Below are positions 21,228-62,889 of a DNA stretch of 64,000 bases, in pieces. The translations under genes were made by a program, and so were the position numbers. The number at the start of each line of letters is the position of its first letter. The first letter of the stretch is position 1. The notes beneath the pieces are model-generated. The model did not search any database and had not been told where the DNA came from. It worked only from the letters and a program-made list of their open reading frames with translations. The DNA comes from Chloroflexia bacterium (GTDB taxonomy: Bacteria > Chloroflexota > Chloroflexia > QHBQ01 > JAICKM01): the NCBI GenBank assembly GCA_050998805.1, contig JBPCPV010000050.1, positions 20,165-84,164 of the forward strand, given 5' to 3'.

Positions 21228-21295
21228 GGACGAGCTATCAGCTTTCAGCTTTCAGCTAGCTGACGGCTGACGGCTGATAGCTGATAGCTCGTCCG
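21228..21295. repeat. inverted-repeat element: 15-bp perfect arms GGACGAGCTATCAGC/GCTGATAGCTCGTCC enclosing tandem heptamers CAGCTTT x2 and GCTGACG x2
   Basis: Read directly from the sequence. Confidence 0.6.
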
Positions 21296-21390
21296 CCTAT
21301 AGACAAACCGCCCCAACTTTGCTACAATAACGACACACGATCCGGCGCAGTTCTAGCGCCCGACGGAGGACAGGAAAGGAAGGAACGACC

Positions 21391-23877
21391 ATGTGGAAAC
21401 GCATCTCGATGATAGGTGTCGGCTTGCTGCTGGCGGCTGCCGCCCTCGTACCCCTCAGCAACGGCCTGCCCGACGCCCAGGCCGCCATGACCGCGCCGAA
21501 CACCGCGGGCGCGCCCCCGCCCCATCAGAACCCGTACAGCGATGCCTGGCTGGCGGCCAACCACGGCAAGTTCGACAACATCTGGACCGCCGAGTATGAG
21601 AGCCGCCTACAGGCAGGCCCCGGCGGCGTGGCAGCCGACGCCTTCAAGGGCCTGCTCTCCCCGCTCTACGGCCCCGACGTTCGCATGTCCAACGGCAGCC
21701 TCCTCGGCAGCGGCCAGAACGAGTTCCAGATCGACATCAACCCCGCCAACAGCCTGAACGCCATCGGCACCTCGAACGACGGCGGCGCAGCAGGCGTCGG
21801 CATCTTCCGCACCACCGACGGCGGCCTAACATGGTCATCTAGGGACGCATCGGTCTACGGAGTTCCGGCCGCCTGCTGCGACCCCGGCGTGGCGTTCGGC
21901 ACCGACGGCAAGGTCTACGCCATCATCCTCGACACCAGCCCGTCCGTCAGCTACATCATCCGCTCCACCGACGGCGGCGCGACATGGCAAGGCCCCAGCC
22001 AGGTAGCGACACCCGACCGCGAGAACATCGCGGTTGACCCGAACAACTCGAACAACGTCTACATCACCTACAGCGAACTGCCCGGCTCCAACCGGATCAA
22101 GGGTTACAAGTCCACCGACGGCGGCGTTACCTGGGGTCCGACGTTCTTCGTCGGCGATGTCGCTCCCGCGCAAGGTTACGAGCAGTCGAGCCAGCCCCGC
22201 GTGGCGTCCGACGGCACGCTCTACGTCGGCTACCAGCAGTACACCAACTCAAGCGTCGGCTGCTCCGCAGGCGTGCAGAACGTCCTCGCCAAGTCCACCA
22301 ACGGCGGCGTCAGCTTCACCTACACCGTGCTGCCGATCGTGCAGGGCGGCGCGTGCTCCTCAGCCCAGGCAGGGCGCGGCATCTTCTGCATCAACGGCTC
22401 TCAGAGCTTCCGCTCCCGTAGCCACCCGATCATCGGCGTCAGCCCCACGAACCCGAACCATGTCTACATGGTCTATTCGGGCGGCGACCTGGAGACTCCC
22501 TACACCTGCGCGGGGGCCACCGGCTTCCACAGCGACACCCTCTTCCGAATATCCACTGACGGAGGCGCGACGTTCAGCCCCCCCACCAAAGTCAACACCG
22601 ACCCATCCGGCAAGGACCAGTACTACCCCTGGATGAGCGTGACCGCGAGCGGCCAGATCTGGATCGGCTGGAACGACCGCCGCGAAGACACCAACGACTT
22701 CCTGAGCCGCTGGTACCAGTCCTACTCGAACGACGAGGGCGCGACATTCCGCAAGGTTGACGGCACCCCCGGCAACGACCCTGTGGCCGACGTTCAGACC
22801 CAGCCCTCGTCATTCATCGGCGACTACCACGGCCTCGGTGCCGTGAACGGCAACGTTCTCGGCATGTGGTTCGACTCCCGCATCTCATCCGGCGGCGACG
22901 CATTCACCGACCCGCAAGTGCCCCCGCCTCCCGGCACTGCGACGCCGACCGCACCCCCGAGCACGGCCACCTCACCCCCGGCTAACACCGCCACGGCCAC
23001 CTCGCCTCCGGCCAACACCGCCACCCCGACGACACCGCCAGCTAACACAGCCACCGCGACCTCGCCTCCGGCCAACACGGCGACGGCCACCGTACCTCCG
23101 GCTAACACCGACACGCCCACCGTGCCCCCAGCCGACACCGACACACCCACTGCGCCTCCGGCCGACACCGCCACCCCAACTATCCTGCCGGTAAGCACGG
23201 CCAGCCCGACAACACCGCCCATAAGCACGGCTACCGCGACAGCACCACCGGTCGCCACGGCCACCCCAACGGCCTGCGCGATCAACTTCTCCGACGTGCA
23301 TATGAGCGACTACTTCTACGTGCCGGTGCAGTACCTCTACTGCCACGGCGTCATCTCCGGCTACTCTGACGGCACATTCAGGCCCTACAATCCGACGACC
23401 CGTTCCCAGATGGTCAAAATAGTCGTCCTCGGCTTCCAAAAGCCGATCAGAACCCCCGCCGGCGGAGCTTACACCTTCACCGACGTGCCGCCTTCCAACA
23501 ACTTCTACGCAGTGATAGAGACGGCAGCGGCAGACGGCATCGTGAGCGGCTACAACTGCGGTACAGCGCCGGCCGGTCCTTGCGACGGCCAACACCGCCC
23601 GTACTTCCTGCCCTACAACAACGTCACGCGCGGCCAGCTCGCCAAGATCGACGTGATCGCCGCAGGTTGGGCGATCATCAACCCCGCGACGCCGAGCTTC
23701 ACCGACGTGCCGCGCGGCTCGACCTTCTACACGGTGATCGAGACGGCCCACTGCCACGGTGTGGTTGACGGCTACTCCGACGGCACGTTCCGACCATACA
23801 ACGACGCGACAAGGGGCCAGATCTCCAAGATCGTCTACCTGTCCATCACTAACCCCGCGCTGAACTGCGGCCCGTAG
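21391..23877 (+). CDS. secreted BNR/Asp-box repeat (sialidase-fold) protein with a Pro/Thr-rich tandem-repeat linker and three C-terminal SLH domains
   Basis: Signal peptide. At least 5 S-x-D-G-G-x-T-W/F Asp-boxes. About 9 copies of a 36-bp (12-aa PPANTATATS-like) repeat. Three FxDV...GYxDGTFRP SLH motifs. Confidence 0.75.
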   Translation: MWKRISMIGVGLLLAAAALVPLSNGLPDAQAAMTAPNTAGAPPPHQNPYSDAWLAANHGKFDNIWTAEYESRLQAGPGGVAADAFKGLLSPLYGPDVRMSNGSLLGSGQNEFQIDINPANSLNAIGTSNDGGAAGVGIFRTTDGGLTWSSRDASVYGVPAACCDPGVAFGTDGKVYAIILDTSPSVSYIIRSTDGGATWQGPSQVATPDRENIAVDPNNSNNVYITYSELPGSNRIKGYKSTDGGVTWGPTFFVGDVAPAQGYEQSSQPRVASDGTLYVGYQQYTNSSVGCSAGVQNVLAKSTNGGVSFTYTVLPIVQGGACSSAQAGRGIFCINGSQSFRSRSHPIIGVSPTNPNHVYMVYSGGDLETPYTCAGATGFHSDTLFRISTDGGATFSPPTKVNTDPSGKDQYYPWMSVTASGQIWIGWNDRREDTNDFLSRWYQSYSNDEGATFRKVDGTPGNDPVADVQTQPSSFIGDYHGLGAVNGNVLGMWFDSRISSGGDAFTDPQVPPPPGTATPTAPPSTATSPPANTATATSPPANTATPTTPPANTATATSPPANTATATVPPANTDTPTVPPADTDTPTAPPADTATPTILPVSTASPTTPPISTATATAPPVATATPTACAINFSDVHMSDYFYVPVQYLYCHGVISGYSDGTFRPYNPTTRSQMVKIVVLGFQKPIRTPAGGAYTFTDVPPSNNFYAVIETAAADGIVSGYNCGTAPAGPCDGQHRPYFLPYNNVTRGQLAKIDVIAAGWAIINPATPSFTDVPRGSTFYTVIETAHCHGVVDGYSDGTFRPYNDATRGQISKIVYLSITNPALNCGP
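22920..23280 (+). repeat. in-frame ~36-bp tandem repeat (about 9-10 copies) encoding the PT-rich linker
   Basis: Nucleotide-level periodicity gctaacaccgccacggccacctcgcctccg... Confidence 0.7.
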
Positions 23878-23970
23878 CCCGCCGCATAACGGCCTGATCG
23901 CCCGTCGCAAGGAAGCCGCAGAGCGCGCTCTGCGGCTTCCCCCTCTAGGGACAATATAAGGGAAAGCCCA

Positions 23971-25059
23971 ATGTCGGTGAAGGGGCGCGAAGTCCGCAAA
24001 ATCCTGCTCTGCGCCCTGCTCCCCATCGGCGACACTCTCTTCGCCACCCCCGCTATCCACGCCGTTCGCGCTCGCTATCCCCACGCCGAGGTCGTCGCGC
24101 TCACCTACCCCACCAACGGCCGCATCTTGCTCAACAACCCCGATGTGGACCGGATATGGTTTGCGCCCACCCGCGCCGCCCCCCAGGGCGCACGCGGCCT
24201 GCTCACACTCCTCACCGCCATCCGCCGCGCGCAGTTCGACCTCTGCATCGAGTTCTCGAACTACAACTACGGCCTCGCCCTCTGGGGCGGTGTCCGCCGC
24301 GACCTGACCATGCGCCTGCCCGCCCTCTGGTGGATACGCCCAGGTGCCGGTCGCGCATGGCGGCGGCTGCACGCCGTGGAGCATTACGCTGATGTCGTCC
24401 GCCGCGCCGCCATCCCCATCTCCGATTGGCGCTTGCGGGTATACGCGACCCCGGCAGAGACCACCGCGTGCGAACGATTGCTCCATGACTACGGCGTGCA
24501 GCCTGCCGAGCCTTTGATAGGGGTCCATCCCGGTGGCGAGGGGCTGTGGGGACGCAAAAAATGGCCCCCGCGCGACTTCGCTCAGGTCGCAGATGAACTC
24601 TATGCGCGCTGTGGGATGAAGATAGTGGTGCTGGGCGGCACCGAAGACGCCTTCCTGGCGGCGGAGGTCGCCCGCCGAAGCTCGGCTCCCGTGCTCAACC
24701 TCGCTGGGCAGACCACGCTTGGGGAGACAGCGGCCCTCGCCGCACGATGCGCCCTCTTCGTCGGCAACGACAGCAGCCCCCTGCACATCGCGGTCGCGGC
24801 AGGCACCCGGGTTGTCGGCATCTACGGGCTGACCGACCCACGATCATACCGCCCCTGGCTGCCCGGGGGCCAAGCCGGCCGCGACTATGCGGTAGTGCAA
24901 AGCACCGCGCCCTGCGCGGGCTGCTTCCCACTCATCGGCGGAATCACCCTGCTAGGCTGGTTCGGGTGCGTCCGATGTGACGCCCTCGCCTCAGTAACGC
25001 CGGCGCAGGTTATCGCCGCCGCGCTGCCATTGCTCGACGCCGCCCGCGCCGAACCCTAG
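23971..25059 (+). CDS. glycosyltransferase family 9 (heptosyltransferase-like)
   Basis: GT9 pattern [21 protein letters not shown] and C-terminal [26 protein letters not shown]. Confidence 0.7.
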
Positions 25060-25319
25060 ACGACCTTCTTCGTGTCGTCCGGCGGCAAGATGACGGTCGG
25101 CTCGACGATTGTCGCAGTCGGGACGCCGGTCGGCTCGACGATTGTCGTAGTCGTGGTCGTTGTGCCCGGCGCTTTTGTGTCGGTATGGTCCTCGCTCGCA
25201 TCGCGGAACTCGCGGATCCCCCGACCGAGCGCGCTGCCGACCTGCGGCAGCTTGCCGGCCCCAAACACAACCAGCACGATTACCAGGATCAAGATCAGTT
25301 CAGGTGCTCCAAGTGACAT
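25056..25319 (-). CDS. tatA: twin-arginine translocase subunit TatA/E with a Thr-rich repetitive C-terminus
   Basis: [41 protein letters not shown] is a canonical TatA TM plus amphipathic helix. Start at internal ATG 25319. Confidence 0.75.
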
Positions 25320-25408
25320 AGCGTTTCCCCTTTCGGTCCCTCCAATTATACCACCATTTCCGCTCATATGAAAGCAAGAAGAAGACCAGGCTTTTCGCCT
25401 GGTCTCGC

Positions 25409-25495
<87 letters not shown>

Positions 25496-25542
25496 ATTTG
25501 CAGAGCTATTATAGCTTAAAGCCGTAGCTGTGTCAAGCGCAG

Positions 25543-26001: not shown

Positions 26002-26029
26002 TACACTCTCCTTGAAGAAAATCGGGGGT

Positions 26030-26824: not shown

Positions 26825-26970
26825 CTGTCTTCTCCGTTTACTAAGCGTGACAATCTGCCGCAGAACTATAATCCGTCTAGCAATCCGCGTTCCCTCGATG
26901 TAAGTTTAGCACCCTGACGGGGCTGTTGTCAAGTCGGTTCGTGTATATCGGATCGTGTATAATGGAACTA

Positions 26971-28178: not shown

Positions 28179-28187
28179 GTTGTTGCT

Positions 28188-28454
28188 CTATGCCTTCTTC
28201 TCAGGAGCCTTCTGGGAGAGGGCGCTGCCGGCTGCGGTTTTGCTGTCCTCAGCGGTCCGACCGTCGCGTAGGACTTTCGAGGCAGCTTCGGCAGCCTCCT
28301 CGCTGGTATGCTTGCCGGAACGCGCCTGGGAGAGGGCGCTGCCGGCTGCGGTCTTGCTGTCCGCACCGGTCTGCTTGTCGCGTAGGACTTTCGAGCCGGC
28401 CTCGGCAGCTTCCTCGCTGGTATGTTTATTGGGGGCTTTCTTCTTGCCTGCCAT
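28188..28454 (-). CDS. small hydrophilic protein made of two ~40-aa repeats (HTSEEAAEA-SKVLRD-ADSKTAAGSALSQ)
   Basis: Matching ~111-bp tandem duplication at the DNA level (28200-28425). Confidence 0.45.
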   Translation of the reverse strand: MAGKKKAPNKHTSEEAAEAGSKVLRDKQTGADSKTAAGSALSQARSGKHTSEEAAEAASKVLRDGRTAEDSKTAAGSALSQKAPEKKA

Positions 28455-28571
28455 GATATACTCCTTTCCGAGTCAGCCAAACAGTAAACTAAGACTAAGC
28501 ACCAAGTGCCGACCTCGACCGCAGCAAGAAGCGTACCCCAAGTCCCCTACATCAAGAACGCTTACCTCGTG

Positions 28572-28600: not shown

Positions 28601-28656
28601 GGAACCGCATCGGGCGGGCATCGCGCACGCCGCATACAGAAGAGAGGATCGGAGAC

Positions 28657-30957
28657 ATGGTCGAAGTTGTAACCAAGCCGGCGGGGCCGGAGGCAGTGCC
28701 GGCCGCGCCGACCGGGGTGGGCGTAAGCGTAGGGGCGGCAACGCGAACATGGCCCCTGCTGCTGGCAGTGCTTGTCTGCGGCGCGGGCAGCATGACGCTC
28801 GAAATGTCCGCCTCGCGGCTGCTGGCCCCCCACTTCGGTAGCTCGCTCTACATCTGGGCCATACTGATCGGCCTCGTGATGATCTTCCTCGCCTCCGGCT
28901 ATAGCATCGGCGGCCGGCTGGCCGACCGCGCGCCCCGCCCCGCGCTCCTCTACGGGATCATCGCCGCCGTCGGCTTGCTGATCGCGCTGATCCCGCTGAT
29001 CTCAGGCCCCGTCCTCTCCGCCTCCGAGCAGTTGTCGGACGGTACTCTGGCGCTCGACCCCGGTGCCGGCATCGCGGTCATCGCGCTCTTCATGCTGCCA
29101 GTGACGCTGCTCGGCTGCGTCTCTCCCTTCGCCGTCCGCCTGCGGATAAGCGAAGTCGGCGCGGCGGGGCGGACGGCAGGCTCGCTTTACGCGCTCTCGA
29201 CCCTCGGCAGCATCCTCGGCACCTTTGTGCCGGTCTTTCTGCTGATGCCCTACCTCGGCATCGCGGTCACCCTCTACCTGTCGGGCATTTCCCTGCTCGC
29301 CGTAGCCGGGATAGGTCTGCTGGCGGGGCGATCTAACCCGCCAGCCACCTTCCCTACACGGGTAGTGGAAGATCGTCTCCCCTCCGCCCGCATGACAGCC
29401 GCGCGCAGAGGGGTCGGTGCTGAGGTAGTCGCCGTCGGCGTCGCCGGCCTCTGCCTGATGATACTCGAAATGACCGCCTCGCAGCTCCTGCGGCCCTATT
29501 TCGGCAACTCGCTCTTCATTTGGGCGACGCTGATCGGCCTTGTGATGATCTACCTCACGGTCGGCTACTTCCTCGGCGGGCGGCTGGCGGACCGCTATCC
29601 GTCGGTACGGGTCTTCTACGGGCTGCTCGTCGCGGCGGGGATCGCTACGGCGATCATACCCACGCTCGCGCAGCCTCTGCTCACCTGGTCGCTGGAGGGC
29701 TTCTCCCAAATCTCGGTCAGCATTTTCTACGGCGCGCTCGCGGGGGTGATCGGCCTCTTCGCGGTGCCGATGATACTCCTCGGATGCGTCTCGCCGTTCG
29801 CCATACGCCTGCGTATGCGCGACCCCGATGCGGCCGGGCGGACCGCCGGCTCGATCTACGCGCTCTCGACATTCGGGAGCATCTTCGGCACCTTCATCCC
29901 GGTCTTCCTGCTGCTGCCGAACATCGGCAGCGGGCGGACGCTGCTCCTCGCGGCAGGCGCGCTGATGCTCACGGTCACGCTCGGCCTCTATGCCTCCGGG
30001 AAGCCGGGCGCGCGGCTTGCGGCGGCTGGTCTGCTCGCGGTCGCCGCGCTCGGCCTCTTGCCGCCGCCGAGCCTGATCAAGCCCCCGCCCTACGGTAGCC
30101 TGCTCGCCGAGCGCGAGTCGGTCTACAACTATATCCAGGTGGTCCAGAGGGACAACGGCGATGTCCACCTCGTGCTCAACGAGGGCCACGCCGTCCACAG
30201 CATCTACCGCGCCGACCAGGCCCACCCTCTGACCGGAGGCCCCTGGGACTACTGGCTCGTCGCCCCCTACGTGAACGCAGGCAAGCGGCCCGCCGATGTC
30301 CACAACATGCTGATGCTCGGCTCCGCTGCCGGCACCGCTGCCGAGCTTTTCACCCGCGTCTACGGCCCCAAGCCTGTGGACGACGTGGAGATCGACCCCG
30401 AGATCGTCAAGCTGGGCCGCCAGTACTTCCACCTCGACTCGCCGAATATCAACAACATCGTACGCGATGCCCGCGTCTACCTGCGGACCACCGACAAGAA
30501 GTACTCGATTGTCGGGATCGACGCCTATCGCCAGCCGTACATCCCCTTCCACCTGACCACACGCGAGTTTTTCCAGGAGGCGCGCGACCGGCTCGAACCC
30601 GGCGGCGTGGCGATGATCAACGCCGGCCGCGCCGGAAAGGACTACCGACTTGTGAACGCGATCGCCGCCACGATGCGCTCGGTCTTCCCCCACGTCTACA
30701 TCATTGACGTGGCCGCCGGCGGCAACAGCATGGTGATCGGCACCGAGCAGGCTGGCGGCATCTCCAACTTCGGGGCGAACGCCGCTGCCGCGACGGACCC
30801 CCTGCTCCGCCAGGTCTTTGCCGCCTCGCTCGACCACGGCAATATGCGCGAGGTCCAGCCTGCCTCCGTCACCGGCGACCCGGTCTTCACCGACGACCGT
30901 GCGCCGGTGGAGGAAGTGATCGACCAGCTTATTTTGAGCTATGTCACAGGCAAGTAG
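28657..30957 (+). CDS. spermidine-synthase-fold (polyamine aminopropyltransferase-like) protein with an internally duplicated N-terminal polytopic membrane domain
   Basis: Two homologous TM modules (LEMSASRLLAPHFGSSLYIWAILIGLVMIFLASGYSIGGRLADR and LEMTASQLLRPYFGNSLFIWATLIGLVMIYLTVGYFLGGRLADR). C-terminal Rossmann region VEIDPEIV...GIDAYRQPYIPFHLTTREFF. Confidence 0.65.
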   Translation: MVEVVTKPAGPEAVPAAPTGVGVSVGAATRTWPLLLAVLVCGAGSMTLEMSASRLLAPHFGSSLYIWAILIGLVMIFLASGYSIGGRLADRAPRPALLYGIIAAVGLLIALIPLISGPVLSASEQLSDGTLALDPGAGIAVIALFMLPVTLLGCVSPFAVRLRISEVGAAGRTAGSLYALSTLGSILGTFVPVFLLMPYLGIAVTLYLSGISLLAVAGIGLLAGRSNPPATFPTRVVEDRLPSARMTAARRGVGAEVVAVGVAGLCLMILEMTASQLLRPYFGNSLFIWATLIGLVMIYLTVGYFLGGRLADRYPSVRVFYGLLVAAGIATAIIPTLAQPLLTWSLEGFSQISVSIFYGALAGVIGLFAVPMILLGCVSPFAIRLRMRDPDAAGRTAGSIYALSTFGSIFGTFIPVFLLLPNIGSGRTLLLAAGALMLTVTLGLYASGKPGARLAAAGLLAVAALGLLPPPSLIKPPPYGSLLAERESVYNYIQVVQRDNGDVHLVLNEGHAVHSIYRADQAHPLTGGPWDYWLVAPYVNAGKRPADVHNMLMLGSAAGTAAELFTRVYGPKPVDDVEIDPEIVKLGRQYFHLDSPNINNIVRDARVYLRTTDKKYSIVGIDAYRQPYIPFHLTTREFFQEARDRLEPGGVAMINAGRAGKDYRLVNAIAATMRSVFPHVYIIDVAAGGNSMVIGTEQAGGISNFGANAAAATDPLLRQVFAASLDHGNMREVQPASVTGDPVFTDDRAPVEEVIDQLILSYVTGK

Positions 30958-30988
30958 GGCAAGTAGGGCAAGTAGGAAAGGAGACCAG

Positions 30989-32816: not shown

Positions 32817-32834
32817 GCATCGCCTGCCGGCACA

Positions 32835-37466: not shown

Positions 37467-37538
37467 GCGTAGTGCGGAGCGCGGATTGCATATGTAGCTT
37501 TACGCACTACGTACTACGCAGCACGTACTACGCAATCA
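37467..37538. repeat. convergent-gene spacer with inverted CGTAGTGCG/CGCACTACG and tandem ACGTACTACGCA x2
   Basis: Read directly; member of the heptamer repeat family. Confidence 0.5.
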
Positions 37539-42472: not shown

Positions 42473-42488
42473 GGCAGTCTCCGGTAGT

Positions 42489-42583
42489 TGTTAGTGGTTA
42501 GTGGTTAGTGGGCCGGGCGGGCTGAGGCAATTATATGACATAGGCGCGCCGGGTGCCAGCGACGGCTGACGTCTGACGGCTGA
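42489..42583. repeat. divergent-promoter spacer with GTTAGTG x3 and GACGGCTGACGTCTGACGGCTGA heptamer modules; the latter doubles as a -35 region for tataat 42590-42595
   Basis: Read directly from the sequence. Confidence 0.55.
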
Positions 42584-42603
42584 TCGCTGTATAATGTGGC
42601 CTT

Positions 42604-44127
42604 ATGTGGACCGTCAGCCGAAATCGCATAGCGGGTCTGCGAACGCTGCCCGCTGGACTGCTCGTCGCCGGGGTGTTGGCCGTGCTCGCCGCCGTCCTCT
42701 ACGGCAGCCTGCTCGGCGGCTACTTCCTGTCCGACGACTTCGTGATCCTCTCGTGGACGCGGGTTTCGGCGCCCGGTGAGGTGTTGGGGCTGTTCGACCC
42801 GCGCGCGCCCTGGTTCTATAGGCCGATGCTCAAGATGGTCTACTGGGCGCTACAGTCCATCTTCGGCCTGAACCCTCTGCCGTTCCACTTGTTCAACATC
42901 GTGATGCACACACTGGCGGCATGGCTTCTCTACTTCTACGCGAAGCGTGTCGCCGCCGCACGCCCGGCGACCGCCCTCGCCGTGAGCCTGCTTTTCTTCG
43001 TGAACCACCGCCACGCCGAGCCTGTCGCCTCGATCTCGGCGATGGGCGAGCTGATCGCGGTGCCCGCGCTCTTCGGCAGCCTGTTGCTGGCCCACCGCTT
43101 CGTGGAGAGCCGCAGGCCGCCCGCGCTCGCCGCCTCCCTCGGCCTCTTCGCCGTCGCGCTGCTCAGTCGGGAGAGCGCCGTGCTGCTGCCGGTACTGGCC
43201 GCGCTCAGCTTGGCGCTCTTCGCACCTAAACCGCTCGGACGACGGGCACTTGCCGCCCTCGGCACCGGCTATGCCGCGCTGCTCGCCGCCTACGCCCTCC
43301 TACAGCTACAGGTGGTCAACCGGGGCGGAGAGGCCGGCGGCGTACTATCGCGCGGCGGCCTCAGCTTCAAGCCGCTTAATGCCGAGTCGGTCGTGCTCGG
43401 CGTCATGGACTACGCTAACGGCCTGCTGCCCGGCGGCGGGGCGGCGGCCTCACTGGCGCTGGACCAGCTCCGCCCGGTCGCCTGGGCAGAGCTGGGGCTG
43501 CTGCTCGCGCTCGGCGGCGTGCTGGCCCTCACACACCTCAAGCTGATGCTGCTCGGCCTCGCATGGATGCTGGTCAGCCCGCTACCGTTCGTGTTCTTCA
43601 ACGCGCCGACCGACCGCTACTTCTACATGCCGACGATAGGCTACAGCCTGCTGCTCGCGGGCCTGCTGGCCGAGGTCGCCTCCGGCCTGGCGCGGCTGCT
43701 GCGACGCCCGCCGTCGGTCGTGGTGCCCTCGGCACTGGCGGGGGCGGTGCTCGTGCTGCTGCTGCCGCAGGTGCCCGCGCTCTCAGCGAAAGAGGCCCAC
43801 TGGAACGCGGCAGGCGCGCTGTCGGGCCGGGTGCTGTCGAGCATGAAAGCGGCGCTGCCCAACCCGGTGCGCCACCAAGCGTTCCTGTTCGTCGGCCTCC
43901 CAACCGATTTCGAGGGCGTGCCGACCTTCCGCAACGGCATCGTGCAGGCCGTCCAGCTGGAGTACGGCAACGACCTGACGCTCCGCGCGGGCATCACGAC
44001 CTGCGCGGAGGTCCGCCGCACCCGCCCGTCGCCGCCCGACAGCGTGTTCCAGTTCACCGGCAGCGACGTTCGCCTGCTGGCCGACCCGCAAAGCTGTGGT
44101 CTACTTGACAAACCCGGGGGTACGTGA
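42604..44127 (+). CDS. polytopic membrane protein, putative GT-C-fold (PMT/ArnT-like) glycosyltransferase
   Basis: About 10 TM helices, an acidic DDF motif in the first extracytoplasmic loop, and a large C-terminal soluble domain. Confidence 0.45.
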   Translation: MWTVSRNRIAGLRTLPAGLLVAGVLAVLAAVLYGSLLGGYFLSDDFVILSWTRVSAPGEVLGLFDPRAPWFYRPMLKMVYWALQSIFGLNPLPFHLFNIVMHTLAAWLLYFYAKRVAAARPATALAVSLLFFVNHRHAEPVASISAMGELIAVPALFGSLLLAHRFVESRRPPALAASLGLFAVALLSRESAVLLPVLAALSLALFAPKPLGRRALAALGTGYAALLAAYALLQLQVVNRGGEAGGVLSRGGLSFKPLNAESVVLGVMDYANGLLPGGGAAASLALDQLRPVAWAELGLLLALGGVLALTHLKLMLLGLAWMLVSPLPFVFFNAPTDRYFYMPTIGYSLLLAGLLAEVASGLARLLRRPPSVVVPSALAGAVLVLLLPQVPALSAKEAHWNAAGALSGRVLSSMKAALPNPVRHQAFLFVGLPTDFEGVPTFRNGIVQAVQLEYGNDLTLRAGITTCAEVRRTRPSPPDSVFQFTGSDVRLLADPQSCGLLDKPGGT

Positions 44128-49970: not shown

Positions 49971-50483
49971 CACCCGCGCCTACTCCATTCGGAGTATCTT
50001 TGCCCCCAAGCCCGCCGGAACCCCCCAAATCTGGCAGTAAACGACCCCTGAAATGGATATTAAAAGTGAGAGGGTAAAATTAGCGCGGCCAAAACGCCCT
50101 ACTGCGTGCCTAAAAGAGCAGTCACCCGGCCCCGCATCCACAAGGTTCCCGGTCGCTTTTCGCCGGTTTCCCAAAAATACTCCGATCGGAGTATCCGTCA
50201 GCATCGTACCCAGCCGCACAGGGAGGATCAACATGTACACCTCAACCCGTACCGCACTCCGCACTCCGCACCGATAACACTTTGCCCGCTTCGTGCCTGG
50301 ATCGCCGTTTTTCGTCTATCGAATCGACGTCTAGGCACGAATTATCGGAATTATCGACTTTCGGGAGGGGTAGCCCACGTAAGGCCGTGCCTGGAACCGG
50401 CTCCTCACGAGCAAAAGAGGCCCTTTTTTGATCGGCTTCCACCAACTCTTATCAGTTTTGCCCAACGCACTACGCACTACGCG

Positions 50484-51659
50484 CTAGTCCATCCAGTGGC
50501 CGGAGGCCCAGAAGTAGGCGGTGGCTGCGAGCAGGGCGGACGACGCGAGGAGCCAGCCAGCCTCTAGCGGGCGGCGAGGGGTGAGCAGGCGAGCGCCTAC
50601 GAGGAACGCCGGCCAGAGCGGGAGCAGGTAGCGCGCCGCGCCGATCGTCGTACCGAGGCTCAACGGGAAGAGCAGGCCGAGCACGAGCCAGGTCAGCTCG
50701 GAGGGCCTCAGCAGCCGCTTGACGCCCGCGAAGACGGCGATCCCCGCGAAGAGCACGGTGAAGGCGAGATCCTGGTACATATAGAGGCGTTGGCCGCCGC
50801 CGAGCATGAACACAGGGTCGGTCGCGGGCGTGGTCGTCCCCCACGACGCAAGCAGCCGGCCCAGCGAGTCGAGCCAGACCTGGGGTGGGAAGCTCGAAGT
50901 GTGCAGCCAACCCTGCTGCTCGGCCTGCAAAAAGGCCAGGGGGTTGCCGAACGCGGCCTGCAAGTACGCCATGTAGGCCAGGAGCGGCAACGGCACCAGC
51001 AGCAGCCACCAGTATCTCAGCACATGCCCGCGCGGTTGCGTGGTGAAGTACTCCACCAGCAGCACCAAGCCGAGGAGGACGCCGACCCAGCGGGTGACGC
51101 CGGCCAGCCCCGCCAGCACGGCGGCTAAGGCCCACCGCTCCTGGCGCGCCAGCCAGAAGACGCCGACGACCATCAGCAGGAAGAGCGACTCGGTGTAGAT
51201 CGCCGACCAGAAGAGGCCGGTGGGGAAGATGGCGATCAGCAGCAAAGTGCGGTCGGCGATGGGGGCGGGGTGGTCGAGCCGCACCAGCCGCCAGAGCAGG
51301 AGCAGCGCGGCGAAAAACGCGAGGTTGCTCACCAGCAGGCCGACCAGCGCGAAGTTGCCGAAGCCTGGGACGCCGATATACAGGCGGAGCAGGTCGAGCA
51401 GCCCGGTGAGGCCGCGAAGCAATAGGGGATAGGCGGGGCAGAAGGCGAGGTCGGAGCCGGTCTGGGGCGTCCAGGCGTAGTAGCCGTGTGAGACCACCTG
51501 CCAGTACCAGCTGCCGTCCCACATCATCGCGCCTTCGACCAGCAGCCCCTTGTTGCGTACCGGCTCCGACGCGACAAGCTGACCGATCCCGACCCACGCC
51601 CCCGCCAGCGCGATCACCCGCGAGACGATGAAGGTGAAGAGCGCGGACCTTACTCCCAC
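50484..51659 (-). CDS. polytopic membrane mannosyltransferase, PIG-V/GT76-like
   Basis: [14 protein letters not shown] matches the WDxxxYxxIAxxGY signature. About 9 TM helices. Confidence 0.5.
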
Positions 51660-53245: not shown

Positions 53246-53293
53246 TAGACCCTTCCTTTGATTGCGGAGTGCGGAGTTGCGCTTACAACCGCA

Positions 53294-55609: not shown

Positions 55610-55834
55610 TACGGCTAGGCCGCTACCCAGACCGGTGGGTGCAGCCCGCCAACGGATTTAGGAAGCGGGTTAAACGGATTTCCCCTTCTTAAATCCGTTG
55701 GCGGGCCGCTCAGGGCACCGAACCTGTCGAATTCGCCGTACCTCGTTCGACGTATTAGTAGAGGGTTTTTACAGGATCGGATCCGCCGTGGGTCCGGTTC
55801 CAACCCCAACACAGAATCATAAGGAGGTACAGCG

Positions 55835-56260: not shown

Positions 56261-56271
56261 TAGGAGGCTCC

Positions 56272-56745: not shown

Positions 56746-56757
56746 CCCAGGGCGGGT

Positions 56758-58062: not shown

Positions 58063-58076
58063 ACAGCGCGCCTCGA

Positions 58077-61000
58077 ATGTGCTATCTTTACAGCACAGTT
58101 CGCACTGGACAGATTGTCATGCCGATCCAAACCAAGCAACCGCCTGCTATCACTGCCTATTACCGACGCCTTGAAGAGATCGCCCAGCATGGGGCGAGCA
58201 ACGAAGGCGCGACCCGCGATGCGTTCCAAACCCTGCTGGCTGAATGGGGCCGGCCGCACGGCCTGACCATGTTGGCTGAGCAGACCATCACCGGCACCCG
58301 CAAGCGCCCGATCCGGCTGGACGGCGTGCTGGTTGACCAGTTGCGGCTGCATCGGGGTATTTGGGAAGCTAAAGACGCCGGCGACGACTTGACGGCAGAG
58401 ATCACCCGCAAGATCGCGGCGGGCTATCCGCTGACTAACACCCTGTTTGAGAACACCCGCAGGGCCGTGCTGTATCAGGAAGGCCGCGTGGTCTATGACG
58501 GCGACCTAAGTAACCCCATCACGCTGCGTACCCTGCTTGATACGTTTGTGGAGTACAGTCCAGCCCAAATCGAGGAGTTCCACCGCGCCGTCGCCCGCTT
58601 CAAAGAGGCCATTCCCGCCCTGGCCGCCAGCTTGACCACGCTCATTGAAGAGGCCAAGACGAAGAACGCTCGGTTCAGCACGGCGCTTGATAGCTTCCTG
58701 AGCATGTGCCGCGCGGCGCTCAACCCGACCACGACCCAGGCCGAAGTTGAAGATATGCTCAAACAGCACATCCTGACCGAGCGCATCTTCCGTAGCATTT
58801 TCCAGAACGCCGACTTCGTGCGCCGCAACGCCGTGGCTGCCGAACTCGAAAAGATGGTGGACGCGCTCACCAGCCGCGATTTCAGCCGGGACGCTTTCTT
58901 ACGGAGCCTTGACTACTTTTACAGCCCCATCGAGGAGACCGCGCGCACCATCGAGGACTATCAGGAGAAGCAGGATCTGCTCAAGGCACTATACGAGCAG
59001 TTCTTTCAGGCGTATTCGGTCCGCGCCGCCGACACCCACGGCATCGTCTACACGCCGCATGAGATCGTCGCCTGGATGGTGCAATCGGTGGAGCAGGCGC
59101 TGCGCCAGGAGTTTGGGCTGTCGCTCGGCGCGCCCGACGTTCACATCATCGATCCCTGCGTAGGCACCGGCACCTTCATCATGGAGATTTTGCGGCGCAT
59201 CCCCGCCACCACCCTTAACGCCAAGTACGGCGAGGAACTGCACGCAAACGAGGTGTTGTTGCTGCCCTATTACATCGCCGCCCAGAACATCGAGCACGCT
59301 TACTACGAGCGCACCGGCGGCTATGCGCCCTTCGAGGGCCTCTGCTTTACGGACACACTCGGCCTGGCCGAGACGGGCCAGACAGAGATGTTCGCGGAAG
59401 AGAACACGGAGCGAGTAGAGCGCCAGAAAGCCGCGCCTATCTTCGTTGTCATTGGCAATCCACCCTATAATATTGGGCAATTGAACGAGAACGACAACAA
59501 CAAGAACCGTAAGTACCCGACCGTTGACGCGCGCATTCGTGCGACTTACGGCAAGAGTTCACGTGCTACGCTCCAAAACAAGCTCTACGATATGTACGTT
59601 AGGTTCTTCCGCTGGGCTACTGACCGCCTTCGCAATGGGGATGGCATCGTCTGCTTCGTGTCCAACAACTCCTTTCTTGAACAGGTTGCCTTTGATGGAA
59701 TGCGTAAGCAACTGATGCAAGACTTCACAAGTATCTACACTTTCGATTTGGGCGGCAACGTTCGCAAGAATCCTAAGCTGTCGGGCACCACACATAACGT
59801 CTTCGGCATCCAGGTTGGCGTAACGATCACTCTGCTGATCCGTAGCAGCCAGCAGAGCACGCACGAATTGTATTACGCCCGCGTGGATGAGTTTTGGAAA
59901 AAGGGGCAAAAGCTAAATCAGTTGACTGAATTAGGTGATTACACCTGTGTTCCCTGGCAGCGCCTCACACCCGACGACCGTGGAGCTTGGTTGACGGAAG
60001 GGTTCCTAGCCGACTTTGCTACCTTTATCCCTCTTGGAACAAGAGAAACTCGGAACACCAAGTCGCTTGACGTCGAGAGCGTTTTCAAGTCCTATGGCCC
60101 AGGCGTTCTTACTGGTAGGGATCCTTGGGTCTATGACTTCCACGCTGGTACGCTTGGTGAGCGTATCGAGGTATTCATTGAAGCCTACAATGAGCAGGTA
60201 TCAAAGTGGCGTCGGCTCGACGACCGACAGGCCAGCGTCGATGATTTCGTCACCTACGACGAGAAGCGCATGAAGTGGAGCCGCAATCTTAAGAGGGATC
60301 TGCGAAGAGGCCAATTCGCGGGCTTCTCCAGTGAAGCCATCCGGCGTTCATTATACCGCCCGTTCACGCAGAAGTTCCTCTACTATGCTGACTACCTGGT
60401 GGACGAGCGGGGTCCGATAGGGGCTTTTTTTCCAACTCCCGCCAGCGAAGAGGAGAATGGCCTTATCTGCGTTAGCGCCTTGGGCCACCGTGCGGGTTTT
60501 ACCGCGTTGATAACGAACCTCATTCCGAATTATTCACTCAATTCCACAGATGGTTTCCAGTGCTTCCCCTTCTACACCTACAATGAAGCCGGCACCGAGC
60601 GGCGGGAGAACATCACGGATTGGGCGCTGGCGCAGTTCCGCACCCACTACGCCGGCGCAAGCGTCACCAAGCGCGACATTTTCCACTACGTTTACGCCGT
60701 GCTGCACGCGCCGGGTTATCGCACCGCCTACGCCGAAAACCTCAAGCGTGACCTGCCGCGCATTCCCTTCGTGCCTGCTCAATCGTTCCGGGCTTATGTT
60801 GACGCGGGCACGACGCTGGCGCATCTGCACCGCGACTATGCCACGCTGCAACCTTACCCGCTCGAAGTACAAGAAACCGGGCGCGTGTCCTGGCGGGTAG
60901 ATGAGCGCGGGATGCGCCTCTCCGCCGACCGCTCGGCCTTGCGCTACAACCCCACGCTCACGCTGTCCGGCATCCCGCCCGCGGCCTTCGACTACCGCCT

Positions 61001-61187
61001 CGGCAACCGCAGCGCGCTAGAGTGGGTGATCGATCAGTACCGCGTGACCACCGACGCACGTAGCGGCCTACGCCACGATCCGAACAACCCCGACGACGAG
61101 CAGGCCATCGTCCGGCTCGTCGGCCAGGTCGTGCGGGTATCACTCGACACGCAGTCCGTCATCGCCGCCTTGCCGCGGTTAGACTGA
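58077..61187 (+). CDS. single-chain type IIG/IIL (MmeI-like) restriction-modification enzyme: N-terminal PD-(D/E)xK nuclease, central gamma-class N6-adenine MTase (DPCVGTGTF, NPPY), C-terminal target-recognition region
   Basis: LDGVLVD...GIWEAKD nuclease triad. Motif I IIDPCVGTGTF and motif IV GNPPYN in gamma order. 1036 aa. Confidence 0.55.
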   Translation: MCYLYSTVRTGQIVMPIQTKQPPAITAYYRRLEEIAQHGASNEGATRDAFQTLLAEWGRPHGLTMLAEQTITGTRKRPIRLDGVLVDQLRLHRGIWEAKDAGDDLTAEITRKIAAGYPLTNTLFENTRRAVLYQEGRVVYDGDLSNPITLRTLLDTFVEYSPAQIEEFHRAVARFKEAIPALAASLTTLIEEAKTKNARFSTALDSFLSMCRAALNPTTTQAEVEDMLKQHILTERIFRSIFQNADFVRRNAVAAELEKMVDALTSRDFSRDAFLRSLDYFYSPIEETARTIEDYQEKQDLLKALYEQFFQAYSVRAADTHGIVYTPHEIVAWMVQSVEQALRQEFGLSLGAPDVHIIDPCVGTGTFIMEILRRIPATTLNAKYGEELHANEVLLLPYYIAAQNIEHAYYERTGGYAPFEGLCFTDTLGLAETGQTEMFAEENTERVERQKAAPIFVVIGNPPYNIGQLNENDNNKNRKYPTVDARIRATYGKSSRATLQNKLYDMYVRFFRWATDRLRNGDGIVCFVSNNSFLEQVAFDGMRKQLMQDFTSIYTFDLGGNVRKNPKLSGTTHNVFGIQVGVTITLLIRSSQQSTHELYYARVDEFWKKGQKLNQLTELGDYTCVPWQRLTPDDRGAWLTEGFLADFATFIPLGTRETRNTKSLDVESVFKSYGPGVLTGRDPWVYDFHAGTLGERIEVFIEAYNEQVSKWRRLDDRQASVDDFVTYDEKRMKWSRNLKRDLRRGQFAGFSSEAIRRSLYRPFTQKFLYYADYLVDERGPIGAFFPTPASEEENGLICVSALGHRAGFTALITNLIPNYSLNSTDGFQCFPFYTYNEAGTERRENITDWALAQFRTHYAGASVTKRDIFHYVYAVLHAPGYRTAYAENLKRDLPRIPFVPAQSFRAYVDAGTTLAHLHRDYATLQPYPLEVQETGRVSWRVDERGMRLSADRSALRYNPTLTLSGIPPAAFDYRLGNRSALEWVIDQYRVTTDARSGLRHDPNNPDDEQAIVRLVGQVVRVSLDTQSVIAALPRLD

Positions 61188-61203
61188 CAGGAGGGATCAT
61201 ACT

Positions 61204-61488
61204 ATGGGCTGGCGCTTTCGTCGCAGCGTGCGCTTGCTGCCAGGGTTGCGGCTGAACTTCAGCAAGCGCGGCCTCGGCTACAGCATCGGGCGCAGGGGCT
61301 TTCGGTTCAGCGTCGGGCCGAACGGACGCCGCACGGCGCTCAGCATCCCCGGCACCGGCTTATCCTACGTCAAGCAAGGGCGAGCGCCCCGCGCCGTGCG
61401 ACGCCCGGCGCAAGTCTTTTGCCCATACTGCCAGGGCGGAAACCCACCGGCGGCCAGACACTGCATCTGGTGCCACAAAGCACTATAA
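61204..61488 (+). CDS. DUF4236-like small protein with a C-terminal zinc-ribbon (CPYC...CIWC)
   Basis: MGWRFRRSVRLLPGLRLNFSKRGLGYSIG... N-terminal signature. GGAGGGA RBS. Confidence 0.5.
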   Translation: MGWRFRRSVRLLPGLRLNFSKRGLGYSIGRRGFRFSVGPNGRRTALSIPGTGLSYVKQGRAPRAVRRPAQVFCPYCQGGNPPAARHCIWCHKAL

Positions 61489-61507
61489 GCAGCGCGATAA
61501 TTACGCA

Positions 61508-62692
61508 CTACGCACTACGGTCCCTGATCTTGACCATAGCCTCGACCACGATCTCGTTCTCTTGGATTGTGTTGTAGAAGTACGGGGAGACGCGCACCGC
61601 GCCGGGGCGCATGTCCACTATCGTGCCTGCCTGGGCGAGGGCGGTGACGACGGGGCGGGGGTTCTCCATGTTCAGCAGCACGATCCCCGACCGGCGGGCG
61701 GGGTCGGCGGCGACGCGGGGCGTGAAGCCTGCCGCGAGGGCGCGGGCGATCAGGTCTTCGGTGAGGTGCTGGGTGCGCTCGCGCAGGGCCTGGGGGCCGA
61801 TCTCGCGCACGTAGGACAGGCCGCCGAGGAAGCTGTAGACCGAGGCCACCGAGTGCGTGCCCTGCTCCAGCCGCTGCGCGGTCTCCGGGAACTCCAGCTG
61901 CTTGATGTTGAAATCGAACTGGTTCTTGACGCCGAACCAGCCGGGTATAGTCGGCTCGAGCTGCGGCAGCAGGTCGCGGCGGGCATAAGTGAAGACGATC
62001 CCGGTGCCTCCGAGCAGCCACTTCAGGCCGCCGGAGAGCAGGAAGTCCACGCCGGCCTGCTTCACGTCGGTCGGGATCTGGCCCGTCGCCTGGTATGCGT
62101 CCACCAGCAGCAGCGCCCCCTTGCGGTGGGCGATCTCGGCGAGCGCCTTGATCTCCTGCACATAGCCGCTCGTGAAGTAGACGTGCGAGGTGGCGACCAG
62201 CGCGGTCCGCTCGTCAATCGCGTCCTCGAACGCCTCCAGGTCCACGCTCACCCGGTCGCGCGAGGGCACGAAGACGGTCTCGACGCCGAGCCGCCGCTTT
62301 GCGAGCCACTGGTGACCGAGCGTCGGGAAGTCGAGTTCGGCCATCACGACCTTGTTCCGCTCACTGTAATCGAGGCAGGAGCTGATCACCGAGATCGCCG
62401 ACGAAATCGAAGGCCCGATGGCGATCTCGTCCGGCCCGGCGTTGATCAGCCCCGCGATGTTCGCCCGCAGCTCGGCTATCCGCCCCATCCACAGCTCATA
62501 CCACGCCGACGCCCCCATGCTCCCCCAGAGCGCGAGGTATTCGTTGACCCCCGCAATCGCCCGCAACGAAAGCGCCCCCAGCGAGCATGAGTTGAGGTAG
62601 TTCACCTTCTCGAATATCGGGAAGTCGGCCCGATAGCGCAGCAGTTCGTCGTGCGCGGGCCATCGCGCGGTGTCCGTGGTCATGGTAGTCAT
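61508..62692 (-). CDS. class V aminotransferase-fold PLP-dependent enzyme
   Basis: AT-V pattern including the LLVDAYQATGQIP / SGGLKWLLG lysine region. Confidence 0.65.
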   Translation of the reverse strand: MTTMTTDTARWPAHDELLRYRADFPIFEKVNYLNSCSLGALSLRAIAGVNEYLALWGSMGASAWYELWMGRIAELRANIAGLINAGPDEIAIGPSISSAISVISSCLDYSERNKVVMAELDFPTLGHQWLAKRRLGVETVFVPSRDRVSVDLEAFEDAIDERTALVATSHVYFTSGYVQEIKALAEIAHRKGALLLVDAYQATGQIPTDVKQAGVDFLLSGGLKWLLGGTGIVFTYARRDLLPQLEPTIPGWFGVKNQFDFNIKQLEFPETAQRLEQGTHSVASVYSFLGGLSYVREIGPQALRERTQHLTEDLIARALAAGFTPRVAADPARRSGIVLLNMENPRPVVTALAQAGTIVDMRPGAVRVSPYFYNTIQENEIVVEAMVKIRDRSA

Positions 62693-62705
62693 AGCTGTTG
62701 CCCCC

Positions 62706-62889
62706 GTTAGTGGTCAGTGGTCAGTGGTCAGTCGGCGGGCCGCCGGGACGGCGGCGATACGCGGGCGGCGGTACGCGAGCGGTGGTCCACGGGCGGAGCC
62801 GGGTCTTACAGCCGTCAGCCGTCAGTCACGCAATACGCAATACGTAATACGCACTGACCACTGACCACTGACCACCGACCACTGACCAC
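62706..62889. repeat. ~185-bp element with long terminal inverted repeats built from GTGGTCA heptamers (GTTAGTGGTCAGTGGTCAGTGGTCAGTCGG ... CACTGACCACTGACCACTGACCACCGACCACTGACCACTG); AGCCGTC x2 and ACGCAAT x3 inside
   Basis: Read directly; lies in the divergent spacer between 61508..62692 (-) and 62963.. (+). Confidence 0.65.

Follow-up and report, generated by a model that had tools for sequence, protein, structure and literature searches.

Why do short tandem repeats of seven nucleotides recur at so many gene boundaries in one stretch of bacterial DNA, and what kind of element are they? The stretch in question, here called the window, comprises 64,000 nucleotides from an uncultured Chloroflexia MAG of 65% GC. 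An earlier, sequence-only reading described a dispersed family of intergenic heptamer modules, often arranged as inverted partners, and proposed that they form a REP-like system or miniature inverted-repeat elements, which may serve as promoter or terminator modules. Every array listed in that reading is present at its coordinates, and TRF detected no further period-7 array between 20 and 64 kb. The gene contexts also agree with new gene calls, the spacers at 37.5 and 61.5 kb being convergent and those at 42.5 and 62.8 kb divergent. The repeats and their neighboring sites are as follows, with a strand given where one applies.

21226..21296: hairpin module with 31-nt inverted-repeat arms, 90% complementary; left arm (TATCAGC)(TTTCAGC)x2, right arm (GCTGACG)x2.7 (GCTGATA)x2.4
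21238-21289: arrays of TCAGCTT (2.9 copies), GCTGACG (2.7) and GCTGATA (2.4) within this inverted repeat
21225..21197, minus strand, and 21300..21328, plus strand: promoter-like sites on either side of the module, with -35 boxes back to back, of the RNase P RNA gene (minus) and an SLH/BNR gene (plus)
30949..30976, plus strand: 9-mer GGCAAGTAG in 3.1 copies
37467..37534: CGCACT-type repeats in the convergent spacer between a hydrolase gene (plus) and purD (minus)
42485..42511: (GTTAGTG)x3.9 in the putative 5' leader of a YfhO-like gene (minus strand, start 42472)
42559..42530, minus strand: promoter-like site for the YfhO-like gene
42561..42583: (GCTGACG/TCTGACG/GCTGATC) array (GACGGCT/GCTGACG), overlapping a -35-like box CTGACG
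50252..50271, plus strand: single array (CCGCACT)x2.9 within a 14-codon mini-ORF (50233-50277) with a Shine-Dalgarno sequence
50465..50486: single array (ACGCACT)x3.1 abutting the stop codon of a minus-strand mannosyltransferase gene (50484-51659)
53263..53277: (TGCGGAG)x2.1 with the glucan phosphorylase stop on one side and the RBS of the following minus-strand gene on the other
61502..61519: (TACGCAC)x2.6 in a convergent spacer, covering the last codons and stop (61508-61510) of a minus-strand aminotransferase gene
62706..62732: left arm (GTGGTCA)x3.4, with its inverted partner at 62852-62891
62750..62853: module interior, with a 14-nt repeat x3.4 (62750-62796), (CAGCCGT)x2.4 (62809-62825) and (ACGCAAT)x3.7 (62828-62853)
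62852..62891: right arm (CACTGAC)x5.7, beginning at the predicted aminotransferase transcription start
62897..62925, minus strand: aminotransferase promoter, with -35 TTGAAG (62925-62920), a 17-nt spacer and an extended -10 TGCTAATCT (62905-62897)

The proposal that such arrays are concentrated at gene boundaries is borne out by strong enrichment. The 4.5 kb of intergenic DNA in the window holds 12 exact tandem-heptamer arrays (228 nt) against 0.36 +/- 0.59 in dinucleotide shuffles, an excess of about 33-fold, and the same DNA holds no array in the period-8 control. Arrays occur at 2.7 per kb of intergenic and 0.075 per kb of coding DNA (about 35-fold), and autocorrelation peaks at lag 7 in intergenic DNA (0.310, with a baseline near 0.26), a peak that coding DNA lacks. 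Between 20.4 and 64 kb the window holds eight arrays with at least 2.5 copies; none occurs in 1.34 Mb of control sequence from 79 unrelated genomes or in the first 20 kb of the window, a mobile, integrative island (1-20 kb). At least three unrelated unit families lie within 44 kb. A TGAC or CTGA core is common among the units, with ACTG in 11 of 72 (4.1 expected) and CTGA in 12 of 72 (4.0 expected).

The arrays vary in length by whole units, as the suggestion of VNTR-like behavior had anticipated. A second metagenome copy (L215) matches the window over 4,043 aligned nucleotides except for a 14-nt deletion that removes two units (62852-62865) of the right-arm array at 62.8 kb. This is the only polymorphism seen within the window's own species, the five other independent contigs being identical. 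Two relatives, L086 and L087, are 99.3% identical and differ in length at just two places, each a single 7-nt unit within an array. Comparison of the orthologous spacer across eight related species (78-83% amino acid identity) extends this variation from copy number to the unit itself, which is GTGGTCA in the window, AGTAGGC in L083 and CGGAATG in L086; L212 has just 2-copy arrays, at stop codons, and half of the relatives (L090, L211, L213 and L214) have no arrays in this spacer. The aminotransferase promoter motif, by comparison, is kept in seven of the eight relatives, and array positions relative to it differ from species to species. Related species do not share the unit, the number of copies or the precise placement of the arrays.

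The most probable explanation, in our judgment, is that the arrays are STRR-type heptanucleotide microsatellites, lineage-specific, and quick to arise and turn over in the untranslated DNA at the borders of genes. Heptamer repeats of this sort have long been known from cyanobacteria, whereas the host here belongs to the Chloroflexia. Short tandemly repeated repetitive (STRR) sequences differ in length among strains, which underlies STRR fingerprinting. Mazel and colleagues reportedly described them in 1990 in Calothrix PCC 7601, with the units CCCCAGT, TTGGTCA and CAACAGT. The existence of three heptamers is also cited in PMC4692102. In both sets, 7-nt units are repeated in tandem from a few to tens of times, several unrelated units occur per genome, and the arrays are intergenic, lineage-specific and variable in length among strains; the window unit GTGGTCA is one base from the STRR unit TTGGTCA. 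Unlike the STRR of heterocystous cyanobacteria, the repeats here have units rich in G+C (GCTGACG, ACGCACT), short arrays of 2-6 copies and prominent inverted pairs. (GTGGTCA)n arrays also occur in 120 or more metagenome contigs with GC contents of 37-71%, one of them (L091) from Nostocaceae, which ties the window arrays to the STRR and long simple-sequence-repeat (SSR) class. Each of these contigs is rich in further heptamer arrays, with 291 exact arrays at period 7 and 23 at period 8.

Other heptamer systems share part of this pattern. MacGregor (2015; PMC4679880) described TAACTGA direct repeats between genes of marine Beggiatoaceae, Cyanobacteria and Bacteroidetes. These too are 2-6-copy arrays at gene boundaries with a patchy phylogenetic distribution, and in 147 of 170 sets the strand carrying ACTG/TGA is the sense one immediately before start codons. 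With heuristic gene calls in the metagenome loci, the corresponding ACTG-type strand is sense upstream of starts at 45:16 here, and the CAGT-type strand is sense after stops at 46:25, a median of 7 nt from the stop. One unit dominates there and many occur here; inverted pairs make up 1 of 170 sets there, whereas array pairs in the window and metagenome loci are inverted in 44 cases and direct in 22. Rehm et al. (2015; PMC4692102) described the G-rich repeats GGGAATC in Xanthomonas and GGGGAYT in Nostoc and reported intergenic over-representation of heptamers in many bacteria, and the same paper cites the long SSRs of Mrazek (2007). These resemble the present arrays in strong intergenic over-representation specific to 7-nt units, in varying in length and sequence at the same intergenic site of close genomes, and in an occasional inverted arrangement, and slippage has been proposed for them. 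The units here are not G-tracts and therefore lack G-quadruplex potential. In Haemophilus influenzae hmw1A/hmw2A (PMC8262952; PMC12721329), a heptanucleotide SSR between promoter and start mediates phase variation, slippage in copy number tuning expression through 5'-UTR structure. That system concerns one class of locus in a host-adapted pathogen, and its graded expression has been demonstrated by experiment, whereas dozens of loci beside housekeeping genes are involved here, known from sequence alone. The arrays matched no Rfam family.

The arrays gain and lose whole 7-nt units, a slippage-type length variation, and they are confined to non-coding sequence, in which the gain or loss of seven nucleotides cannot shift a reading frame. 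A polymerase footprint, reportedly Mrazek's idea, is a hypothetical reason why seven nucleotides are favored. Inverted arrays of one unit may allow the DNA or its transcript to fold into a long hairpin with predicted arms of 20-30 bp. Several arrays appear to sit in transcribed leaders or directly 3' of stop codons; copy-number change would then be expected to alter the length and structure of UTRs and could modulate expression as a side effect. The arrays are probably not a conserved sequence-specific signal.

Alternatively, the inverted pairs may be selected RNA structures, either a hairpin in the 5' UTR that stabilizes the message or is targeted by RNase III, or a bidirectional factor-independent terminator or 3'-end protector between convergent genes, the repeats being merely how stems are built and tuned. 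The fold energies agree with the inverted-partner arrangement first noted from the letters: the 21.2-kb module folds at -56.7 kcal/mol (z -10.35) and the 62.8-kb module at -113 kcal/mol (z -5.5), with further stems at z -5.4 and -9.0. With transcript ends predicted from consensus and conservation, the module begins at the transcription start in the window; in L086 it begins at the ubiA leader. The -10 box lies 204 nt from the aminotransferase ATG in the window and 45-90 nt in relatives; given the promoter position, the whole 186-nt module would therefore fall within a 5' UTR of about 200 nt. Its left arm (62706-62732) is the 3' arm on the minus-strand mRNA and ends 13 nt before the RBS/ATG region. 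The right arm contains one variant unit, with C at 62876, which gives a G.U pair in that mRNA and a C.A mismatch on the other strand. The H. influenzae SSR, acting through 5'-UTR structure and RNase III (PMC12721329), offers a precedent.

Other loci fit this account poorly, and we consider it unlikely. Five of nine sites are single arrays without significant structure on folding, among them 50252..50271 (no structure) and 50465..50486 (no significant fold). In the 37.5-kb convergent spacer, GCGTAGTGCG lies immediately 3' of the hydrolase-side (left) stop codon and a TACGCAC/TACGTAC array (period 7/14) immediately precedes the purD stop codon, yet this weak inverted pair is no more stably folded than shuffled sequence (z -1.9 and -1.5). 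The arrays at 42485 and 42561 pair only through G.U pairs on plus-strand RNA (z -3.2, against +0.4 on the minus strand), the strand without an evident upstream promoter. T-tracts are missing, and T-tract terminators show no enrichment (9 where 9.6 are expected, and 11 where 11.3 are). The idea of terminator modules is not supported; the absence of arrays from half of the orthologous spacers also counts against selection.

The inverted pairs themselves have a constant polarity. A G-rich (CAGT-type) array lies on the left and a C-rich (ACTG-type) array on the right regardless of flanking-gene orientation; all 22 informative pairs have the AGT-type array at the left, and among other units the left arm has more G than C in 11 and more C than G in one. 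A palindromic module gives the same hairpin from either strand, which fits a polarity independent of gene orientation, but hairpin energy is the same whichever arm is 5', and function alone therefore does not explain it. Pure slippage likewise does not predict strict polarity, nor does it account for the origin of a second array that carries the same unit in inverted orientation at a distance of 25-170 nt. With z values of -5 to -10, the hairpins have extreme stability, and selection could act on them.

Fixed head-to-head polarity would be expected of dyad-symmetric recognition, and the arrays might be sites for a DNA- or RNA-binding protein (a regulator, nucleoid protein or ribosome-associated factor) or promoter parts with repeated TGAC -35-like boxes, forming a regulon-like network. 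The over-represented ACTG and CTGA, the TGAC/CTGA cores and the strong orientation relative to start codons point the same way, and regulatory effects of heptamer repeats have been proposed in Nostoc (10.1101/2022.06.06.494920) and Beggiatoaceae (PMC4679880). The consensus match noted earlier, CTGACG-18-TATAAT at 42566-42595, is present, its TATAAT at 42590-42595 preceding the PMT_2 gene ATG at 42604. As a general role for the arrays, however, promoter function did not hold up: relatives keep the promoter fixed, with arrays upstream, across or downstream of it, or absent. Unrelated unit families coexist in 44 kb, sister species differ at the same spacer, arm spacing varies over the 25-170 nt range, and a candidate binding protein was not found, which makes this explanation quite improbable.

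That the modules are non-autonomous mobile elements, REP/REPIN-like (Bertels and Rainey, 2011; PMC3116915) or foldback MITEs with heptamer-array terminal inverted repeats and a transposase encoded elsewhere, is very improbable. They share with such elements an extragenic, dispersed position, hairpin-forming inverted arms, presence or absence in the orthologous spacer of relatives, and a constant arm polarity resembling terminal inverted repeats. However, no two modules have a common internal sequence, arms differ among modules of one genome, single arrays are common, and variation consists of unit-sized indels inside arrays, in 7-nt steps. Modules sharing nothing longer than 7-mers do not support the REP or MITE identity first suggested; a conserved unit of 20-40 nt is lacking, neither a target-site duplication nor a clean insertion boundary could be defined, and no Y1/RAYT or other transposase was found among 20 window proteins scanned. 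The arrays are not copies of one mobile element. Chance or assembly artefact is refuted by the shuffles, the 1.34-Mb control and recovery of the window arrays base for base in six independent assemblies, even though short-read (Logan) contigs break inside the longest array (62852-62891).

One listed repeat falls outside the heptamer class: the GGCAAGTAG array was rejected as a heptamer, its unit being a 9-mer. Its first unit holds the TAG stop of the gene at 28657-30957, its three TAGs share one frame, and it runs up to the RBS of the next gene.

Tandem Repeats Finder, run on the 20-64 kb part of the window, detects 13 period-7 arrays of 2.1-5.7 copies that span 21.2-62.9 kb. A sequence-only reading had listed a dispersed family of tandem heptamers at gene boundaries; all arrays in its list were recovered by reading of the sequence, Tandem Repeats Finder and an exact-run scan, which revealed no additional one of period 7 between 21.2 and 62.9 kb. 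One listed repeat has another period:

30949-30976: 9-mer GGCAAGTAG in three copies, not period 7

According to a gene model based on GC3 and backed by Pfam, every window array sits in a spacer or extends a few bases over a stop codon. The 4.5 kb of spacer DNA holds 12 exact heptamer arrays (228 nt) versus 0.36 +/- 0.59 in dinucleotide-preserving shuffles, and no exact period-8 array. Array density in the window is 2.7 per kb in spacers versus 0.075 per kb in coding DNA. In a wider set of loci, 279 of 320 arrays fall outside called genes, whereas coding sequence makes up 78% of the DNA. Autocorrelation of the window spacers is highest at lag 7 (0.310 versus ~0.26) and is raised at lag 14 too; coding DNA shows a 3-nt period alone. 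Arrays of at least 2.5 copies number eight in window positions 20.4-64 kb, 10 in 48 kb of relatives, and none in 1.34 Mb from 79 unrelated genomes, a negative control composed of distant-phyla loci obtained by a PurD scan of genome contigs. Because the shuffles and the 1.34-Mb control show far fewer arrays, the enrichment over shuffled sequence expected by the earlier reading is real. The arrays fit the class of long SSR/STRR-type heptanucleotides (STRR, short tandemly repeated repetitive heptanucleotides): tandem 7-nt units that are over-represented, biased to intergenic DNA and polymorphic by whole units.

Over-representation of heptamers in intergenic DNA has been reported for many bacteria (Mrazek 2007, as cited in PMC4692102 and PMC4679880), and Calothrix is cited as having three STRR heptamers (in PMC4692102). 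Intergenic cases include GGGAATC in Xanthomonas and GGGGAYT in Nostoc, the Xanthomonas arrays differing in length between species and occasionally forming inverted pairs (PMC4692102). TAACTGA occurs in Beggiatoaceae, Cyanobacteria and Bacteroidetes, and most of its arrays point toward start codons (PMC4679880). The window unit (GTGGTCA)x3 is present in at least 120 metagenome contigs, with a GC content of 37-71% among the matches listed, and 80 loci from these contigs contain 291 exact arrays at period 7 versus 23 at period 8. One such locus, L091, belongs to Nostocaceae by protein identity; with a unit common to Nostocaceae and the window, the window arrays and the cyanobacterial repeats belong to one kind of object. 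In the strict sense, STRRs are the units STRR1-3 in a heterocystous cyanobacterial host. The window arrays fall outside this definition, since their host is a Chloroflexia bacterium and their units differ from STRR1-3, the nearest pair being GTGGTCA and TTGGTCA. A literature search found no report of heptamer repeats in Chloroflexi; a poorly understood phenomenon, represented by STRR, TAACTGA and the Xanthomonas repeats, is extended here to an uncultured high-GC Chloroflexia lineage.

Array length changes in steps of whole units. A JGI metagenome contig (L215) differs from the window at a single point over 4,043 aligned positions, a 14-nt deletion at 62852-62865 that removes exactly two CACTGAC units. 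In one related species, loci L086 and L087 share 99.3% identity across 7,142 nt, and their sole indels are two 7-nt units within arrays. The VNTR-like variation between strains raised by the sequence-only reading is thus found in both comparisons. Six Logan contigs, drawn from four runs, otherwise match the window exactly, in the arrays as well, so the arrays are not assembly artefacts; two of the six end within the polymorphic CACTGAC array. Exact-protein look-ups of the flanks of other modules returned window-identical clones alone, and for this reason length polymorphism in the window species is shown for one array only. In these natural population data, no sites of the locus change faster than the arrays. 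They also break short-read contigs, fragmenting assemblies, and could serve as strain markers.

Turnover over longer distances is seen in the spacer between the divergent class-V aminotransferase and PRC-barrel genes, which was compared in eight related species with 78-83% protein identity. A conserved promoter served as the fixed landmark for array positions:

62897-62925, minus strand: sigma-70-type promoter of the aminotransferase gene, GTTGAAG-N14-extended -10 TGCTAAKCT

This promoter is kept in seven of the eight relatives, including L083, L086, L090, L211, L213 and L214. In the window, the GTGGTCA arms and three other units sit between the -10 box and the ATG, a distance of 204 nt versus 45-90 nt in relatives, and the putative transcription start at 62890 falls at an array edge. 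L083 carries (AGTAGGC)x5.4 before the -35 box, with an inverse copy in the leader; L086 carries (CGGAATG)x4.9 and (TCCGCAA)x4.3, each upstream of the promoter; L212 has two-copy arrays alone, overlapping stop codons; and no arrays occur in the orthologous spacer of L090, L211, L213 or L214. Downstream of a conserved ubiA promoter, L086 has 230 nt of TCAGGTA and TCAGGGG arrays together with their inverse, and L083 has a 45-nt leader at the same position. The arrays are not conserved among relatives. Because they differ or are missing by species, modules have been gained and lost independently, with species-specific units. Inferred UTRs of housekeeping genes and adjoining spacers are lengthened and restructured by arrays, as in the hairpin leader of the aminotransferase gene, 200 nt long versus ~50 nt in relatives, and in the hairpin that precedes the promoter of the RNase P RNA gene.

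Other elements of these spacers were noted in passing. A perfect sigma-54-type -24/-12 consensus, TGGCACGCCATTTGCA (TGGCACG-N4-TTGCA; 62930-62945, plus strand), precedes the PRC-barrel gene (ATG at 62972) by ~27 nt and is conserved in at least three relatives (L083, L090 and L213). The heptamer-free spacer of L211 (1612-1993) has a duplicated hairpin-like repeat of ~45 nt (GGGGAGA...TCTCCCC). Two CIRCE-like operators, TTAGCACTC-N9-GAGTGCTAA, precede groES in L083 (5060-5335) and L086 (6104-6620) and adjoin the ubiA promoter, where the large heptamer block is present in L086 only.

On balance, the arrays are probably a lineage-specific population of slippage-prone heptanucleotide microsatellites. 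Such repeats would accumulate where frameshifts do no harm and would turn over fast, and the lengthening and folding of UTRs would be a by-product of that turnover.

That the modules are instead selected RNA hairpins appears unlikely, although some fold strongly. The 21220-21302 segment folds at -56.7 kcal/mol (z -10.4), and the 208-nt minus-strand leader at 62.8 kb, which forms a 24-bp stem, at -113 kcal/mol (z -5.5); inverted pairs of relatives give z -5.4 (L083) and z -9.0 (L086). The 37.5 kb convergent spacer folds no better than shuffles, and the five single arrays have no structure. The 42.5 kb pair folds as plus-strand RNA only, through G.U pairs (z -3.2 versus +0.4), and that strand shows no evident promoter upstream; this strand-specific, G.U-dependent hairpin was set aside as functional evidence. 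A scan of Rfam 15 with gathering and E-value thresholds matched no module, finding two tRNAs and RNase P RNA only.

The inverted pairs have a fixed polarity. Among the matches listed, same-unit array pairs 25-400 nt apart are inverted in 44 cases versus direct in 22, and all 22 informative inverted pairs, again among the matches listed, place the AGT/CAGT-type unit (e.g. GGTCAGT) left on the top strand and the ACT/ACTG-type unit right (two-sided binomial ~5e-7; 14 pairs of the queried unit, eight of other units). In the pairs with other units, G exceeds C in the left arm of 11, and C exceeds G in that of one. Polarity holds in convergent (11/12), divergent (12/16) and also co-directional spacers, with gene contexts at metagenome loci taken from a heuristic gene caller; it thus belongs to the module itself, whichever way the flanking genes point. 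The known orientation rules follow directly from it: before starts the sense strand is ACTG-type (45:16), and after stops it is CAGT-type (46:25; chi-square ~19.6, computed from these counts). In the window, 12 of 13 arrays follow the polarity.

Hairpin energy is indifferent to this polarity. A three-frame stop-codon module was rejected as a general rule, although ACTGACC x3 gives TGA in every frame, because L083 (AGTAGGC), L102 (AGCAGTG) and the CGTAGTG family have stops on the opposite, inward-reading strand, and non-query units near starts show no stop-codon bias (15 sense versus 17 antisense). Nor is a universal ACTG/CTGA core defining, being only ~3-fold enriched and found in 11-12 of 72 units. 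Since neither hairpin thermodynamics, stop-codon content nor simple slippage predicts the polarity, the modules might conceivably be more than slippage debris: a dedicated machinery, common to several phyla (Chloroflexia, Nostocales and others), would generate them or act on them, an idea that we regard as doubtful. It could consist of an array-recognising protein, or of a mobile or template-switch process of the foldback type. Only the polarity rule might hint at anything more specific than microsatellites, and its constancy across phyla is a concrete, testable clue to the origin of such repeats.

We consider it improbable, more so than selected hairpins, that the modules are protein-binding or promoter arrays. 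Two promoter-like sites, placed back to back, flank the 21.2 kb hairpin exactly, and the leftward one precedes the RNase P RNA gene:

21225..21197: near-consensus promoter TTGACG-17-TATAAT, upstream of RNase P RNA

At 42566-42595, the resemblance of a heptamer copy to a -35 box, pointed out in the sequence-only reading, stands up as a true consensus match, with CTGACG 18 nt from TATAAT. The ATG of a PMT_2-family glycosyltransferase lies only 8 nt past this TATAAT box (42590-42604), which suggests that its mRNA is leaderless. As for the suggested terminator role, terminator-like T-tract sites are not above shuffles in number, and none coincides with an array, so that intrinsic (hairpin plus T-tract) terminators were rejected.

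Mobile REP or MITE elements, the family first proposed, are very unlikely: across the 44 kb compared, the modules share no sequence beyond the heptamers and no conserved 20-40-nt imperfect palindrome family, their arms are of three unrelated types (TCAGC-type, GTGGTCA and CGCACTA), the three sites with inverted arms have unrelated interiors, and no RAYT (Y1) or other transposase occurs among 20 window proteins scanned. Relatives without the module provide an insertion-site comparison, in which the flanks are too diverged to define boundaries or a target-site duplication.

The aminotransferase beside two modules has an exact match (100% identity) in a protein annotated as that of a Chloroflexia bacterium MAG. 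A PurD scan of GTDB species contigs, which detects only loci fitting its peptide patterns, gave a best match of 75% identity (L003) and a next of ~49%, so the lineage looks poorly sampled among the GTDB species scanned; the protein database has aminotransferase relatives at 78-83% identity. L003 (2 kb), the only close relative from that scan, has no arrays, and the other matches are distant phyla. An integrative mobile element at tRNA-His occupies window positions 1-20377, with a lower G+C content (52-60% in parts):

88-141: three iteron-like AT-rich 18-nt repeats
1198-2157: primase zinc-ribbon protein, integrative element
2144-3544: AAA_25 helicase-like protein, integrative element
4239-6152, minus strand: Replic_Relax protein, integrative element
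14804-16090: tyrosine integrase, integrative element
19646-20377, minus strand: truncated integrase beside tRNA-His

No heptamer array of at least 2.5 copies occurs in the first 16-20 kb, which fits a host-specific process that foreign DNA has not yet undergone.

The tRNA-His gene (20697-20771) is preceded on the same strand by a class A bacterial RNase P RNA gene (20787-21166, minus strand), a full-length model match (80.9 bits, E 7e-23) missed by the default Rfam scan because its score is under the gathering score of 100. A 513-nt spacer without a called gene or Rfam match contains a 14-codon mini-ORF, MYTSTRTALRTPHR (50233-50277, plus strand), which has a strong Shine-Dalgarno sequence and encloses the CCGCACT array; two palindromes related to each other, ATACTCCGATCGGAGTAT and a variant, lie upstream of it (49981-49998 and 50178-50195). 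An inverted repeat that is not heptamer-based (55641-55709; 28-nt arms, 89% complementary, 13-nt loop) lies just upstream of the glucan phosphorylase start (55609, minus strand). Longer repeats include coding 30-nt/90-nt tandem repeats in an SLH/BNR surface-protein gene, forming a Pro/Thr/Ala-rich linker (22962-23174), a 114-nt tandem duplication at 28212-28424, and an internal two-fold duplication of ~670 nt (28792-29953) in the gene at 28657-30957.
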